Shown in pieces: positions 21,001 to 33,000 of a DNA stretch of 64,000 nucleotides. A program made the position numbers. Each line of letters begins with the position of its first letter. The first letter of the stretch is position 1. The DNA is from an uncultured bacterium (GTDB lineage: Bacteria; Verrucomicrobiota; Verrucomicrobiia; Limisphaerales; UBA8199), in contig CAVVMW010000001.1 of the NCBI GenBank assembly GCA_963749495.1, positions 128,001-192,000 of the forward strand. The letters run 5' to 3'.

Positions 21001-24000
21001 TGCCCAACGACACGCGCCTGGAAGACGACACCCAGATCGCCCTCATCACCGGGCCGAACATGGCCGGCAAGAGCACCTACATCCGCCAGGTGGCCCTGCT
21101 GGTGTTGCTGGCCCACACCGGCTCGTTCATCCCCGCCGCCCAGGCGCGCCTGGGCCTGGTCGACCGCATCTTCACCCGCATCGGCGCCAGCGACGACCTG
21201 GCGCGCGGCCAATCCACCTTCATGGTCGAGATGTGCGAGACCGCCAACATCCTCAACAACGCCACCCCGCGCAGCCTCATCATCCTGGACGAAATCGGCC
21301 GCGGCACCAGCACCTTCGACGGCCTGAGCCTGGCCTGGAGCATCGTCGAGCACCTTCACAACCAGGTCGGCGCCAAGACCCTCTTCGCCACCCATTACCA
21401 CGAACTGACCGAACTGGCCGCGCGCCTGCCCCGCCTCAAGAATTACAACGTCGCCGTCCGCGAGTGGCGCGACCAGGTCGTCTTCCTGCGCAAGATCGTC
21501 GAGGGCGGCACCGACAAGAGTTACGGCATCCAGGTCGCCCGCCTGGCCGGTGTGCCCCGCCCCATCCTCGACCGCGCCAAGCAAATCCTGCGCAACCTCG
21601 AGGAATCCGAACTGACCCCCGAGGGCAACGTCCGCCAGCCCACCCGCCGCCAGAAGGACCTCGAGAAACTCCAGCAGCTTGCCCCGCCGCCGCAGATGGA
21701 CCTCTTCGGGTAGGCCCGGGGTCCGCAACCTGGGTCAAGGGAGAACTTCCTCGCAACCTTCGTCGCAACCTTTGTCGAAGCCTTTGTCGAAACCGTTGTC
21801 GCATTCCCTGACGTTCGGTCCAGGCGCTCACGTCCGCGACAGCACCGCCAAAGGAAGCGCCAAAGGAAGCGACAAAGGTTGCGACAAAGACAAGAAAGTG
21901 ATCCAACGGCCTCTGCTGTGCAGCGCCGCCCTGGGGGAGTCGTGAAGGCGCACCCCCCCGGCGCGCGATTCATCCCGGAGCGAGGAAAGATGGTAGCCGA
22001 ATTCATTCGGACCTGCCAAAATGCACCGGCTATATGGTCAAAGTCATTGTGTACCTATTCCCGATGGCGGGCCTAATTCTTTTGGCCCCCGGGTGCGCCC
22101 GGGACTTGAGCCAGGACCCGAGGCGGGCAACGCCGGCGCTGGCGCCGGCAAACCCTGCCCAGGCCGCCAACCCGCTCCCGCCCGGCGCGGCCCAATCCAA
22201 AGGGCCGGAGGAAACCGAGTACAAGAAGCTCCTGGACGCCGATGACGAGGCCCAGGCGGAGGCGGACAAGTGGATTCGCGAGAACCAGGATTTCGCCGCC
22301 AAGGGCGGGGGCCTGCCCCAGGCCGAGATGAACCGGCGCATCCGCGAGCGCTTCGAGCCGGTCCGCAAGGGCTACGAGGACTTCATCCAGCGCCACCCGG
22401 AGCACGCGCGCGCCCGCGTGGCCTTTGCCGGATTCCTGGGCGACCTTGGGGAAGACGACGCCGCCAAGGCGCAGTTGGAACGGGCCATGGCGCTCGACCC
22501 CAACAACCCGGCCGTCTATAACAACCTGGCCAATATCTATGGCCACGAAGGCCCCGTGAAAAAGGCCTTCGAGTACTTTGGCAAGGCCCTGGAACTCAAC
22601 CCCCGCGAATCGGTCTATTACCACAACTTCGCCACGACGGTCTATGTGTTCCGCAAGGACGCGATGGAGTATTTCGGCATCGACGAACAGCAGGTCATTG
22701 AAAAGTCCATCAACCTCTATAGCAATGCCTTGAGGCTGGACCCGGACAACTTCCCGGTCGCGTCGGATGTCGCGCAGACCTACTACGCCGTCAAACCGCT
22801 GCGGGCCGACGAGGCGCTCAATGCCTGGACCAACGCCTTGCGCGTGGCGCACGACGAAGTCCAGCGCCAAGGCGTCCTTGTTCACATGGCCCGCATCAAG
22901 ATGGCCGCCGGCCGCTTCGCCGAGGCCCACGCCCACCTGGACAACGTCACCGACCCGGTTTACAACGAACTCAAGAGCCGGCTCGCCCGCAACCTCCAGG
23001 AGCGCGAGCGCAACCCCAGCGGCAACGCCACCAACGCGCCCCCCGCAGCCGTGGTAGGGAGCACCAACGCCCCTCCGGCGGCCATAGAGAAAAAGTAGCG
23101 CAAAAACCCCGTCACCGCGCAGCGGTGCTTGAAGGTAGCCGTGGTCCCATTCGTGCGATTCGTGTAATTCGTGGGACGTTCCGTGTCACCGCGTAGCGGT
23201 GCTCGAAGGTAGCCGTGGACTTCCAGTCCACGGATCCATGGCACAAGACTCCTCGCGTCGCGTAGCAACGCCTGAAACCCAGGAGCCGTTCTGCCAGTGT
23301 GAAGCCATCGAGCGTCGCTACGCGACGCGTGATTTTTCCAGCGCCCCCCACCGTGGACCGAGGTCCACGGCTACCTTCACCACGTCGCGACGCGACGCAC
23401 CCGCTGCGCCCTCTCCCCATCGGATGGGGAGAGGGTTAGGGTGAGGGGTCTGCCCGGCGCTCCGCCTCCGCCTTCACTGACCGATTTCTGGGGAGCAAAG
23501 AATGTTGTTGCCAAAACCGCGAAAACGGAGCACAAACGGCGATGGTTGGAGTTCGGTCGCAGAATCTGATGCACCATGAACTTTCGGGACTTCTTTATCA
23601 CGGACACCGGCCGCGTCCAGAGGCGGCACGGCCATCAGTGCCTCCTCACCTCACTTGATGAGTTCCTGGTACTCATTCGGACCGTAAGCGCTCGCAGGCT
23701 TTCCGCAGTCTCCGGCTTCGAGCATCTTCTTCGATCTGCCGATCCCACTCTTCGCCACGGCGCGCGCGCAGGGACCGCTATTTCAAGCGGTCCCGTTCAA
23801 TGGGGCCGCGCCCCGGGGGCGCGGAGAGCTTTCTCAGCTACGCGCGGAACTCTAAAAAACAAAACGCTTCAATGGGGCCTCGGCCACGACAGCCAGTTCT
23901 CATCCCGGGTCGAGGAAGGCTATGTTGTCGGGATTTACATCGGTGAAAAACACACCGTGCTGGGAACGGAAGTCGTCGAGGACGGACTGGACAACCGGCC

Positions 24001-30000: not shown

Positions 30001-33000
30001 TCCCGCCACGCTGCTCGGCAGCGGCGAACACCGTCTCACCCTCCAGGCAACCCTCCAGCCGGTGGCCGGCCTCGATCGCTTCCAGCCCGCTGGCTTTCCG
30101 GAAATCGGTCATGTGATCTACGACTCACCACGGCGCGATGGCCGGCCCGATAAGATCTGCATCGTCGATAGCGCCGCGAGCATGGCCAACCATCTCGAAG
30201 CCGTCTGTCTCGCAGGCCCCTTCGGCGCGACAGTCGCCCCTGAGTTGGCTGGTCTGCCTTACGTGGAATGTGTCACCGACGAGTATCAATTGGACGCGAC
30301 CGGATTCGCTTCGGTCACCAAATCAGGACCGCACACAACGGTGATGAACACCTTCACGGAAGGGCATCGGCTGGCGTCTTCGTACTTTTGTCTGGGAAAA
30401 GAAAAGACGAAGGGCGTCGAGAAAGGTGAAGGGGAGGCTGCGGCTGACTCAACGAAGAAAAAAAGGAAGACGAAGGCTTTGCTCGTTGTTGATGGGAAGA
30501 CGTCCGATCGAGGATTCTACGAAGCTCTGCGTGACGAATTCAACGTCGTGAATTTAGGAACCAATTCGCATCCCTTGCCACAGGACTGGTGGCGGGTTTT
30601 CAAAGTTATCTTCAAGTACGACCCGAACTCGCTCGTTCACGGCATTCTCTTTCCCGCGCTGGGAATCAAAATCCCGCGCGTTCTCACAGGGCATCTTGAA
30701 GCATTTGGCGCGGCGCGAGTCGGGAGTGCGGGCGTGAAATTCGACAAGCTGCTGATGACTACGTCCGGCCAGCCCATCTTTGCCGTGGATGAAGAAACTG
30801 CGCGCGAGATTCGCGCGACCTTCATCATCGATCTTGCGTTGCTCCGCTCGTTTGGCCGCACTGAAAAGAAAGACGGCAACGTGAACGTCCAAGGCTTGAG
30901 CGAAGCGCAAAAGCGGCTGCTGCTTGCGCTCGCGCTGTGGAAGATTGGCAGGTTGCTGGCCAAGCCATTCCGCTATCGCTCACGCTGCGATCTCGAAATT
31001 GCGAGTTTGCGGCGTACCGATGCCGCCGCCGCTGGTGACCTGAAAATCGAGGATCTGGAGGTTGATATCGCAGACGCGATCCGCAGTGCAGGTTTCCCGA
31101 AGAACCCTGTAACGCAGGTCTATTGGCCTGCAGGCGAGATTTTCAAAAAGGCGAAGGAGAAAGCGGACACCTCGGACGAGAATCAACCGGCTGGAGAGGA
31201 AGACGAAGAACAGGCTGGCGGAACCAACGAGGAGTGAACGGCAATGGTGAGGGTCATCCTTCAGCAGCGTTTTCCCCTGGGGCGCTTTCACGCGAACCCC
31301 TGGAAGGCCTTTCCGTTCGACGATCCCTATGGCGAATGGCCGCCGAGTCCGTGGCGATTGCTGCGCGCGCTTGTTGCTCGCAGCCATCAACTCGCGCGTG
31401 AGGAGCCCACCGTGGGCGAAATCGAGCGTGCCGCTCTGGTGCGCGCATTTTGCACCAGCTCGGTCCGGTGGCATCTGCCTGAGCAGTCGTGGCGCGGACC
31501 CGGTTTGCGGCAGTATCAGCCAGCGGAGTTCAGCCGCGTTCCCAAATCGGCGAAAGAACCTGGTCGCATGGCGCACAGCACCACAAAGAACCAGGACAAC
31601 TGCTGGCTCACCGCCGGGCCGGAAGACCCGGTTTGGTGGTTCATCGAAGGCGAGCACTGGAATGATGAGGTCGTGGGGGTTCTCGATGCGTGTCTGGCCC
31701 GGATGACCTATTTTGGTCGTGCCGAATCCATCACTCTGATGCAACGTGCTGACAGCAAAGTGCAGCATCCCGAACCAAATTGCTTTGCGATACCGCAACG
31801 CACCTCCCGTAGTGTGCTTGTTTTGTTTCCCACCCCCGACGCCACGCTGACCGATGTCGAACGCGGCACCGACGATCCGGCGATCGCCCAATCAACTGTG
31901 CCGCCAGGTGCCGTTTGGCGGTTCGCGGAACGTCCACGCCAGCCCCCGCTGCAGGCAATCCCAAGACGGCCCAAACGAGTATCGTCGGAAGTTCGCTTCC
32001 TCCAATTTGCAATCGGCTCACGCGTCTCGCCGACCAGGGATTCAGCGGCCATCCTGACGAATCGTTTTAGGGGTCGAGCCATCAGAATCTTGAGCGGCGG
32101 GTCGTGGAGTAAAGCTCCTGCCGAGCTCAAAGCGGACCTCGCTTTCTTCACGGGCAAGGACGCCGATGGAAAGCCCCTCGAAGGGCATCAGCACGCATTC
32201 TTCGCCCTGTGGTTTGATCGCGCGACTCGCAAAGCTGCACGCATGTTGGTCTGGCGTAAGACTCCGTTTTCCCACGAAGAACAACAGGCATTGCTCGCAG
32301 CCGCGCAAGAGCCGCTGAGCCTCGGTTACAACGACAAAGGCAAAGACCCGTGGCGCAGCAAAGACCCGTGGCGCATTCACCTCGTCCCGCTCGATACGAC
32401 GGTCCAGCCACCGAGTGGATTCGATCCATCGCAGCAATTCGTAACTTGGGAGGCGATGTCGCTCTTTGTGCCACCCCAACACATTTACGACCGCCACGGA
32501 AAGGAGAAACCGGGCAAATCACTGGCATCTCAGGTTCTGCGCGAACTGCAAAGTCATGGATTTGCGGCGACCAACGCTTCGATTGAAGTGTTGGGCAGCG
32601 GGTGGGTGAAAGTGCATCAACCTCGCGTCGAAAGTGGCGAGAAGACCAATTCGACAAAGCGCGGCTTTCGAATACGCCTGACATTTCCCATTCCAATCAG
32701 CGGCCCCATCGCCCTCGGCCACTCCGCCCACTTCGGCCTTGGCCTGTTCGTGCCGGCGGCTGGCGGCGGCCTTTGATTCGTGATAAAGGAAAGCCATGAA
32801 AACAGTGACGCTCTCGGCCACGTTTGACGGCCAACAGATTCGTCTGGAAGAGGACTATCCGCTGCCCAAGAACGCGCGGCTGCTGGTGACGGTGCTGCCC
32901 GCGGCAGCCGACAGCGAAGAGGAGTTCCGTCGAAGTTGGTACGGGCTCGCCGCCGACGCCCTGGCGGGCGCCTATGGCCCGGAAGAACCGGAATATACCT

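Follow-up and report, generated by a model that had tools for sequence, protein, structure and literature searches.

Type I-G CRISPR-Cas systems (formerly subtype I-U) occur at two loci in the genome of this uncultured bacterium. The first of these (locus 1) lies in the window, the 64,000-nucleotide stretch of contig C1 that was analysed, and raises the question of what is done by a single-spacer mini-array that lies upstream of a cas operon, on the opposite strand, and whose spacer begins with a match to a site in front of that operon. An earlier note had proposed a self-directed, CreR-like guide at both I-G loci. Architecture, PAM, the skipped spacer positions 6 and 12 and covariation in relatives bear this out, and the mini-array is probably a Cas-regulating mini-CRISPR of the CreR type that belongs to the I-G system.

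Anatomy of the mini-array

23795-23901, minus strand: mini-array 1 (psi-R, spacer, intact repeat), read from the sequence
23866-23901, minus strand: degenerate upstream repeat psi-R (nhmmer, model positions 13-36 only, 14.5 bits)
23865 down to 23830, minus strand: spacer of 36 nt, with bases 1-17 (23865 down to 23849) as the guide part
23795-23829, minus strand: intact repeat R (nhmmer against an array-only repeat profile, model positions 2-34, 16.5 bits)
23771-23794, minus strand: perfect 9-bp hairpin directly 3' of the intact repeat (fold prediction)
23651-23770, minus strand: small-ORF remnant, C-terminal part only (ORF translation and two-locus alignment)

The canonical stem of psi-R is lost, in sequence and in fold. 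Its 3' end is kept (...GGCCCCATTGAAGC) and would become the 8-nt 5' handle of a guide. The intact repeat, with a predicted hairpin of 8-bp G+C stem, would be the source of the 3' hairpin, consistent with the 8-nt handle and the hairpin-bound Csb2 described for I-G (PMC9638904). With no canonical hairpin in psi-R, cleavage by Cas6 on the 3' side of this repeat is in doubt. The hairpin that follows the intact repeat includes the 13-mer GGACCGCTTGAAA, present exactly twice in the genome, once 3' of each mini-array, and may form the transcript end; there is no T-run 3' of it and it is absent from the output of the terminator scan. The second I-G locus has the full 76-aa form of the small ORF immediately 3' of mini-array 2, where alignment of the two loci gives about 87% nucleotide identity with the remnant over about 100 columns. 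It also has a tblastn match directly after the mini-arrays of L131 and L135, and no match to a Pfam family reached the threshold. A cas3 5' remnant, at 23576, is a further fragment upstream of the operon.

The self-match and its surroundings

24649-24654, plus strand: -35-like hexamer TTGCAT, 43 nt upstream of the PAM
24698-24700, plus strand: PAM TTC (sequence match)
24701-24717, plus strand: 17-nt guide target (sequence match)
24715-24947, plus strand: leader segment unique to locus 1, about 222 nt between 11-nt direct repeats

Spacer bases 1-17 are identical to 24701-24717 on the plus strand save for mismatches at positions 6 and 12 (15/17), as the earlier note had described. Beyond the spacer itself, this is the sole match to the 17-mer with up to two mismatches on either strand of the 11.4-Mb genome, and it is likewise the only site on both strands (22.7 Mb) when up to two mismatches are allowed at the 15 paired positions and a TTN PAM is demanded. 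GAA, the complement of TTC, is the PAM used in a study of I-G Cas4/1 (PMC10504553). Each of the six homologous cassettes has a TTGCAT, TTGCAC or TTGACA hexamer 43-52 nt 5' of its PAM. While a strict sigma-70 scan of 23500-25100 found no promoter, we infer a cas promoter near 24649-24654 from this conserved -35-like hexamer alone.

Two copies of AGTCAGGCCCG, an 11-nt direct repeat, bound the leader segment at 24715 and 24937. The segment itself has no second copy anywhere in the genome, and it separates the target from the start codon of cas3 by 245 nt. A 92-codon ORF over it has no codon-position bias (GC1/2/3 0.57/0.60/0.58). This distance counts against autoregulation, as in four relatives the homologous target abuts the cas3 start.

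State of the cas operon

24962-27878, plus strand: cas3g (TIGR02621, profile positions 1-310 and 328 onward)
27883-30000, plus strand: cas8g1/csx17 (TIGR04113, E 2e-101)
29978-31237, plus strand: csb1/cas7g (TIGR02570, PF09617)
31244-32776, plus strand: csb2, a Cas5-Cas6 fusion (TIGR02165, E 6.8e-29, full length)

A one-base frameshift near 26019-26022, within the conserved helicase motif LLTSRFRP, breaks cas3g into two ORFs (24962-26038 and 26052-27878). In 17/18 relatives cas3 is continuous, in one frame, through this motif, which rules out the split gene that had been suggested; the frameshift would be either an assembly error or decay of the locus. The cas8g1 start codon lies 4 nt past the cas3 stop. 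That locus 1 has neither array nor adaptation genes was confirmed: cas1 is confined to C14, C6 and C1:419k genome-wide, a k-mer scan finds three CRISPR arrays in the genome, and the repeat-profile search gave no array-like matches within the 64-kb window. Csb2 is encoded at two loci in the genome. With cas4/1, cas2 and its own array lost, cas3g frameshifted and a 222-nt insert in the leader, the operon looks partly decayed.

It is therefore possible, if unlikely, that guide and target are relics, inherited from a real CreR circuit that no longer works, and that their pairing reflects how recent the decay is. The loss of array and adaptation genes fits such a relic, as do the frameshift in a motif uninterrupted elsewhere, the unique insert between target and cas3, the upstream fragments (the cas3 5' remnant and the truncated small ORF) and the family-profile scores of Csb1 and Csb2, which are far below those of their L016 counterparts. 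Separately, and as a point against the CreR-type reading itself, I-G Cascade is reported to require Cas3 for a stable R-loop complex (PMC9638904), so that with cas3g frameshifted Cascade binding at locus 1 might be impaired. Against the relic reading, cas8g1, csb1 and csb2 are open, tightly packed and of normal codon-position bias, all 15 paired guide-target positions are intact, and the frameshift may be an error in a metagenome-assembled genome of 88% completeness.

A kinase-like gene and a PilZ-like gene

23900-24412, minus strand: small kinase-like gene, 170 aa (PADLOC PDLC01137 'ST_Kinase', E 1.1e-50)
24411-24647, plus strand: 78-aa gene with a predicted PilZ-like beta-barrel fold (structure prediction and homologues)

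The match to PDLC01137 covers 158 of the 162 profile positions, and the G-loop, the AxK lysine and the D..N catalytic-loop residues are invariant in the alignment of the kinase-like protein. Its homologues adjoin I-G loci in L016, L025, L041 and L060. The stop codon lies within the first bases of psi-R, so that cleavage of the 3'-terminal part of the kinase-like transcript may release the guide. The kinase-like gene and the 78-aa gene are divergently oriented and their start codons overlap; the 78-aa gene lies upstream of the cas operon in the same orientation as the operon. Its product is 44-49% identical across six related loci and has no Pfam match; in Foldseek the AlphaFold2 model (mean pLDDT 89) matches PilZ domains best (E 0.04-1, probability 0.9-1), and the look-alikes of the protein in the atlas are unnamed proteins of 77-79 aa.

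The mini-array is physically tied to this pair in the window and in L025, L082, L128-L132, L131 and L137, and the pair also turns up in places that lack cas genes, next to restriction-modification and other defence genes, much as a selfish or defence module would. These observations, the small ORF 3' of the mini-array in several loci and the publication of both CreTA and a protein-toxin variant would suit a safeguard of the CreTA kind, in which the guide represses a toxic gene, instead of or besides cas, and loss of Cascade poisons the cell, with either the kinase-like/PilZ-like pair or some element of the 245-nt leader as the candidate toxin. We consider this very improbable. Seen from the kinase-like gene, the target is beyond the 78-aa gene and 3' of it, where bound Cascade would not block the promoter of either; 3' of the target there is a leader without coding signature and then cas3; in L016, L051 and L060 the target is found 30-270 nt 5' of cas8g1 with no other gene between; and Pfam and PADLOC searches matched no toxin family.

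Recurrence and covariation in relatives

Two sets of loci were searched: first, 80 related genome loci taken together with the window and L001, and second, 80 metagenome loci fetched by kinase alignment. In the first set the repeat profile found two-hit mini-arrays outside arrays in exactly the window, L001, L016, L025, L051 and L060; two more two-hit clusters (L027 and L065) sit at array edges. All four related-locus mini-arrays (4/80 genome loci) carry a TTN-flanked self-match. With arrays masked, the genome loci gave four hits for a TT PAM, two in total for the 15 other dinucleotides and one in total for eight control motifs. In the metagenome loci TT gave 23 hits, and a repeat-like handle precedes 17 of these (13 distinct sequences; 17/80 loci); each of the 15 other dinucleotides gave 0-8 (mean 1.7). 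The design is thus strongly conserved, being present in 21 related loci (4 genome and 17 metagenome) with 17 distinct spacer-target pairs and, with its presence at the second locus, this overturns the earlier statement that no conservation had been found.

Positions 1-17, paired: identity 274/285 in 19 pairs (selection required at least 13/15)
Positions 6 and 12: identity 3/38 in 19 pairs
Position 18: identity 6/19 in 19 pairs
Positions 25-36: identity 53/228 in 19 pairs

Across the six homologous cassettes the sequence varies at nine of the 15 paired positions, yet within a locus the spacer still agrees with its own target in 89 of 90 cells; spacers paired with targets of other loci agree at a mean of 10.7/15 positions (maximum 13). 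This locus-specific covariation argues, at the level of sequence, that the guide-target pair is functional. Targets are found where effector operons begin: in L025, L082, L131 and L137 the homologous target immediately precedes the cas3 start codon, in L016, L051 and L060 it is cas8g1 that follows, and at the second I-G locus the target overlaps the first codons of csb1. For the mini-arrays of L083, L092, L145 and L161 no target was detectable in the available sequence, those of L098, L123 and L139 have a shorter or weaker match only, and the repeat-profile search found no mini-array at the best homologues of the locus 1 cas3g (L002-L007). A chance origin, with the repeats as debris of an array now lost and the 15/17 match as an accident or a one-off self-acquired spacer, has only the loss of the locus 1 array and the shortness of the match in its favour; it is scarcely credible and, as far as sequence allows, refuted, since the site is unique in the 22.7 Mb searched, the match lies at the spacer 5' end with the correct PAM, the design recurs at the second locus and in 21 related loci against near-zero controls, and spacer and target covary; chance had been judged unlikely before.

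In L016 and L060 the same cassette heads ordinary I-G loci with cas4/cas1. The circuit at locus 1 is, by this comparison, inherited from ordinary I-G loci and not peculiar to an orphan module, which, together with the frameshift in cas3g, tells against the proposal of an orphan Cascade kept under, or for, autorepression.

The second I-G locus

C1:410129-410235: mini-array 2, confirmed in the same way as mini-array 1
C1:410320-410337: target of mini-array 2, PAM TTT on the minus strand, 16/18 with mismatches at positions 6 and 12

The second target corresponds to codons 2-7 of csb1, and the same searches upheld the earlier description of it. An array-only repeat profile built from the true I-G arrays of other loci recovers both mini-arrays as two-hit clusters, and the stem changes are paired (TC/GA in the array repeat, CC/GG in both mini-arrays), so the likeness of the repeats, with compensatory changes, also stands. 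The repeat of the I-G array, 260 kb from locus 1, shares the stem base and 7/8 handle bases; mini-array 2, at that array's own locus, has a handle, ATTGAAGC, and a repeat stem identical to those of mini-array 1. With a compatible repeat in the distant array and a shared handle and stem, supply of crRNA to locus 1 in trans is possible, and the claim that the mini-array is the only cognate guide of locus 1 is not supported.

Proposed mechanism

For a CreR-type regulator the following course would seem likely. Minus-strand transcription would take in the mini-array, probably at the 3' end of the kinase-like transcript, and the Cas6 domain of Csb2 would cleave this RNA to a crRNA-like guide that carries the handle ATTGAAGC and, from the intact repeat, a hairpin. 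In the I-G Cascade, bases 1-17 would pair with the PAM-flanked site just 3' of the presumed cas promoter; the bases flipped out by Cas7 would be those at positions 6 and 12. As pairing ends at about base 18, the R-loop would be incomplete, and Cascade on its target would act as a roadblock that triggers no Cas3 cleavage, so that the operon represses itself. Repression would be released once guide-free Cascade becomes scarce.

Relation to known systems

CreR mini-CRISPRs have been described for types I-B, I-E and V-A, and creA-like elements of subtype I-U were found by hand (Liu et al, 2023, 10.1101/2023.03.10.532045, Figure S7). The kind of regulator is therefore already known, with such elements listed for I-U/I-G by Liu et al; the literature searched held no tested I-G example. 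As in CreR, a unit of degenerate repeat, pseudo-spacer and repeat adjoins the cas genes, the spacer matches, in its PAM-proximal part, a PAM-flanked site heading the effector operon, and the partial complementarity leads one to expect binding without cleavage. Unlike in CreR, the operon at locus 1 begins with cas3g and has no array or adaptation genes of its own, and the guide abuts a kinase-like gene. The regulatory mini-arrays of Shmakov et al (2023; PMC10120712) similarly have two repeat-like sequences, a spacer with partial complementarity to cas promoter regions and transcription opposite to the cas genes, and a sixth-position mismatch was noted for I-F1. Their table gives 235 I-G loci, 4% with a mini-array, a rate close to the 4/80 genome loci found here. 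In the available text of that paper, targets are given for I-E, I-F1, I-D and I-B but not for I-G, and the word 'kinase' is absent. CreTA of the Haloarcula type I-B system and its protein-toxin variant (10.1101/2024.01.05.574328) share the degenerate mini-CRISPR guide and partial pairing, but the target at locus 1 controls no toxin gene.

What is new here is that the guide abuts a CRISPR-linked kinase-like gene paired with a PilZ-like 78-aa gene, in a cassette that recurs at the head of I-G operons. At locus 1 the regulator may govern a decaying module, or one that uses only crRNAs supplied in trans.

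Mini-arrays and their targets at the two type I-G loci

Upstream of the type I-G operon a one-spacer mini-array (mini-array 1) lies on the minus strand, in which a degenerate repeat is followed, reading from 23901 to 23795, by a 36-nt spacer and an intact repeat. The elements discussed below are as follows.

Features at the head of the operon and cas genes (window coordinates)
23795-23901 (-), mini-array 1
23900-24412 (-), kinase-like gene, 170 aa
24411-24647 (+), PilZ-like 78-aa gene
24701-24717 (+), target of mini-array 1
24962-26038, cas3g, first ORF (TIGR02621)
26052-27878, cas3g, second ORF (TIGR02621)
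27883-30000, cas8g1/csx17 (TIGR04113)
29978-31237, csb1 (TIGR02570)
31244-32776, csb2 (TIGR02165)

The degenerate repeat retains the 3' end ...GGCCCCATTGAAGC and, because the repeat of the I-G array of the genome (contig C1, 420981-424414) ends in GTTGAAGC, base 1 of the spacer was placed at 23865. Spacer positions 1-17 are identical to the target except at positions 6 and 12, so that all 15 of the paired positions (1-5, 7-11 and 13-17) match, and the PAM TTC lies directly 5' of the target. Over positions 19-36 guide and target agree at 8 of 18, the complementarity ending well short of the end of the spacer. On both strands of the whole 11.37-Mb assembly the target was the sole match to the 17-mer with up to two mismatches, besides the spacer itself, and again the sole site when the 15 paired positions (up to two mismatches) were required next to a TTN PAM. 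A second seed site for this guide (11 nt plus PAM, C22:489752) was dismissed, as such a number is the chance expectation (about 1.4 by our own estimate). At the second type I-G locus of the genome (L001), mini-array 2 (L001 5129-5235, C1:410129-410235) matches codons 2-7 of csb1 at 16 of 18 positions, with mismatches at 6 and 12 and the PAM TTT. Both self-matches reported in the earlier note are therefore borne out.

Immediately downstream of the mini-array there is an ORF of 76 aa in L001 (4665-5085, minus strand), in the window (23651-23770) and in the metagenome loci L131 (2662-2802) and L135 (1624-1851). Its DNA is about 87% identical between the two I-G loci of the genome, whereas their Cas proteins are far apart, which hints at joint movement or recombination of the mini-array and its downstream flank. 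A MAFFT alignment of the two regions misaligned the arrays themselves, and only its downstream ORF part was used. At locus 2 a second small ORF follows; the two look like a type II antitoxin-toxin pair, with no Pfam family over threshold for either ORF beside mini-array 2. Upstream of mini-array 1, window 23562-23611 is a short remnant of a cas3g 5' end (reading MNFRDFF...), which two sites in the related locus L025 match at 89-91% identity over 35 nt. This suggests that the head of the operon has undergone rearrangement or duplication in the past.

The cas operon of the window

The cas genes are tightly packed and the effector set of cas3g, cas8g, csb1 and csb2 is complete. Csb2 is encoded at two loci in the genome, cas1 genes are found only beside its three arrays (C14, C6 and C1:419k), and a repeat-profile search found no CRISPR array in the 64-kb window, all of which agrees with the previous description of a module that has neither adaptation genes (cas4/cas1, cas2) nor an array. 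Near a contig end (C12:603676-604279), irregular short repeats built on ACAGAAATCGGGGTCACATC fill a 600-bp block, which does not qualify as a CRISPR array. The place that cas4/cas1 take in relatives is occupied here by a PemK/MazF-like toxin gene (32974-33378, Pfam E 1.8e-5), which lies some 200 nt downstream of csb2 and follows an 82-aa ORF without a family assignment.

The two cas3g ORFs had been taken as a split Cas3g. The first ends in ...DVILLTS-PVPPL-stop and the frame of the second, just upstream of its ATG, reads RLRFRPSDRKES, while relatives carry (V/I)(V/I)LLTSRFRPxDR...KLLAFE in a single frame; cas3g is continuous in 17 of the 18 relatives where both flanks could be located. Both ORFs would be explained by a single additional base near 26019-26022, the apparent Shine-Dalgarno and ATG of the second being ordinary codons (K-E-S-M). 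Rather than an evolved split this reads as a one-base frameshift in the LLTSRFRP motif, which may be genuine or may stem from an error of assembly, the MAG being 88% complete.

In L001 the genes run csb1, csb2, cas3g (8216-12283, C1:413216-417283) and cas8g1 is absent; cas3g is fused there to a 'Cas3-extension' domain (NF049934), and in L025 to cas8g2, so that self-targeting mini-arrays are present in both I-G variants.

Guide-target pairs in related loci

Eighty related genome loci, each encoding a relative of the first cas3g ORF and about half of them from Verrucomicrobiota MAGs, were scanned with a spaced seed in which a TTGAA handle precedes the 15 paired positions, with an adjacent TT. 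The scan picked L016, L025, L051 and L060 together with the two own loci. Exactly the same six places were returned as two-hit clusters outside arrays by an nhmmer repeat profile trained on 16 true arrays only, making two independent screens. An initial unmasked seed scan had given 41 raw hits, mostly array repeats against each other, and its repeat-inflated control counts are superseded by a scan with arrays masked, in which TT gave 4 hits, the other 15 dinucleotides 2 in total and eight control motifs 1 in total; here L001 is dropped by the masking and L060 by a mismatch at position 11. Two further pairs, L066 6456 versus 14992 and L077 286 versus 9954, were set aside as they are kilobases apart, have one mismatch and do not lie behind a repeat-profile match.

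In L016, L060 and L051 guide and target are both found between cas3g and cas8g1, with the target just upstream of cas8g1; cas4/cas1 are present in L016 and L060, and the contig of L051 is too short to judge the other genes. L025 has the geometry of the window, its spacer and target starting 836 nt apart and the target abutting the ATG of the cas3g::cas8g2 fusion. The kinase-like gene is present there in two tandem copies (6358-6945 and 6870-7412), one of which lacks part of its N terminus; the other, full copy is overlapped at its 3' end by the mini-array, and an extra cas3g lies upstream. The earlier note had found no conservation of the mini-array. This holds for the closest cas3g homologues, L002-L007, where the repeat profile detected none, but as a wider claim it does not stand, given the four loci described here.

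Further pairs came from metagenome loci, of which 80 were fetched with the kinase alignment from at least 354 stretches encoding relatives of the kinase-like gene. I-G cas genes are present in 21 of the 80, and 19 of these 21 have a repeat-profile match, compared with 7 of the 59 others, which are mostly short contigs. With TT the seed scan returned 23 hits, of which 17 follow a repeat-like handle and represent 13 distinct sequences; each of the other 15 dinucleotides gave 0-8. For the mini-arrays of L083, L092, L145 and L161 no convincing target was found, even by looser searches.

Pairing pattern and covariation

Nineteen guide-target pairs (two own, four genome and 13 metagenome), selected for identity at 13 or more of the 15 paired positions, were compared.

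Identity between spacer and target in the 19 pairs (identical/compared)
Paired positions within 1-17: 274/285
Positions 6 and 12: 3/38
Position 18: 6/19
Positions 19-23: 36/95
Positions 25-36: 53/228 (23%)

According to the published account of how I-G Cascade is built, each Cas7 accommodates 5+1 bases, of which the sixth is flipped out and does not pair, Csb2 remains on the hairpin at the 3' end and there is a 5' handle of 8 nt (PMC9638904); the pattern of the 19 pairs fits this 5+1 binding. The same paper reports reconstitution of the Thioalkalivibrio I-G system in E. coli. Identity at positions 6 and 12 is below the 23% seen at positions 25-36, with nominal binomial values of 0.015 (3/38) and, among unrelated spacers, of 0.04 (2/26). 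The loci are not independent, and no excess of mismatches is claimed; the low matching at these two positions may be due to inheritance and not to selection for mismatch.

Six cassettes are of the window type, with the guide right after the stop codon of the kinase-like gene (the window, L025, L082, L130, L131 and L137). The target lies directly before the cas3 start codon in L025, L082, L131 and L137, and not in the window or L130. The six targets are homologous and vary among loci at 9 of the 15 paired positions. Each spacer agrees with its own target in 89 of 90 cells, whereas spacers compared with the targets of other loci average 10.7 of 15. This covariation is compensatory change in the guide-target pair.

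The kinase-like and PilZ-like gene pair

The ORF at 23900-24412 matches the PADLOC profile ST_Kinase (PDLC01137) over its full length (E 1.1e-50, profile positions 5-162 of 162), which PADLOC describes as a small kinase adjoining CRISPR loci of Rhodopirellula. A 247-aa long form of this ORF was rejected, because in relatives a stop codon lies upstream of the start of the shorter form. The 78-aa gene is divergent from the kinase-like gene, the two lying back-to-back with overlapping start codons, and it is kept upstream of cas3g in L016, L025, L041, L042, L047 and L060. The nearest solved folds to the model of the 78-aa protein (pLDDT 89) are PilZ domains, with weak E-values, and Pfam returned neither PilZ nor any other family. 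PilZ domains bind c-di-GMP through the motifs RxxxR and D/NxSxxG. In the alignment, inspected by eye, D-x-S is conserved and there is no conserved RxxxR. Look-alikes in the Atlas are unnamed clusters of 77-79 aa proteins only.

Of the 80 metagenome loci fetched, 77 have the 78-aa gene next to the kinase-like one. Ten long loci that carry the pair and lack I-G genes contain no cas genes, and some have restriction-modification or other defence genes. The occurrence of the pair in loci without cas genes argues that it is an autonomous module, often placed at the head of I-G operons. Database and literature searches turned up no function for it and no report linking it to such guides; subscription journals and supplements may hold more.

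Position of the target in the operon leader

In each of the six homologous cassettes a -35-like sequence (TTGCAT, TTGCAC or TTGACA) precedes the PAM by 43-52 nt and may mark a promoter upstream of the target, which would then fall within the first 10-35 transcribed bases. A strict consensus scan of window 23500-25100 gave no sigma-70-like site and two terminator-like sites no better than chance. Mini-array 1 has its target 245 nt upstream of cas3g; relatives have theirs right at the cas3 start codon, whereas in the window a 222-nt segment intervenes (24715-24947), flanked by an 11-nt direct repeat, AGTCAGGCCCG, and with no other copy in the genome. At this distance a Cascade roadblock would still be able to work. 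A 92-codon ORF over the target (24687-24965) was rejected as a gene, having neither codon-position bias nor a family match. Two short contigs from a DNA sequencing run are identical to 24401-24560 and 24662-24837 and leave the mini-array and the frameshift uncovered; the run may be the source sample and is thus not independent support.

Interpretation

The best reading of the mini-array is CreR-type autorepression of the I-G operon by a Cas-regulating RNA. The mini-array would be transcribed and the guide processed from it, and Cascade carrying this guide would bind the target and repress the cas genes, each step being inferred from sequence relations. The window unit shares with CreR a degenerate mini-array beside a cas locus and a PAM-proximal partial match. 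CreR has been shown for types I-B, I-E and V-A, in a study that also reports creA-like elements found by hand for I-U, in its Figure S7 (10.1101/2023.03.10.532045). Shmakov et al. list 235 I-G loci, 4% of them with a mini-array, and describe targets for I-E, I-F1, I-D and I-B and sixth-position mismatches for I-F1 (PMC10120712). The literature search, outside subscription journals and supplements that may hold more, found no experimental test of such guides in I-G.

The earlier note saw an orphan Cascade, served only by its self-guide and kept under, or for, autorepression. Three observations speak against this. Handle ATTGAAGC and repeat stem are common to both mini-arrays, the array of locus 2 and its own mini-array are unlike in base 1 of the handle and in the two uppermost pairs of the stem, and the array repeats of relatives vary at those same places. 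In sequence, the RNAs of the two loci show nothing to tell them apart, so that guides and array crRNAs could plausibly be loaded across loci, and the idea of a Cascade maintained for self-repression alone finds no support. The simpler view, in the light of the frameshift, the insert in the leader and the upstream gene fragments, is of an ordinary I-G locus with an inherited regulator that has lost parts.

A more elaborate scheme seems to us improbable. The guide would be cut from the kinase transcript as one of three conserved parts of a control cassette heading I-G operons, together with the kinase-like and PilZ-like 78-aa genes; the protein pair would couple autorepression by Cascade to a signal of the cell or of an infection, such as a nucleotide second messenger or phosphorylation; regulation would cross between the two I-G modules, because their mini-arrays share handle and hairpin; and the array-less module would draw immune crRNAs from the other locus. 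A CRISPR-repressed toxin-antitoxin (CreTA) is very unlikely, since no toxin gene lies at the target, which is followed by a leader without coding signature and then cas3g, and since in L016, L051 and L060 the next gene after the target is cas8g1.

The tie of the guide to the kinase-like/PilZ-like pair is the one fresh lead here, and it falls short of demonstrating a new kind of system. Type I-G is, to our knowledge, the least studied type I subtype, and the guides described here give sequence-level support that its systems self-regulate via crRNA-like guides. Across the 19 pairs selection appears to keep spacer positions 1-5, 7-11 and 13-17 and to ignore 6, 12 and everything from 18 on. The pattern would be an evolutionary read-out of the 5+1 binding of Cas7 and of a pairing length that allows binding without triggering cleavage, a length that would be useful for designing I-G based gene repression.
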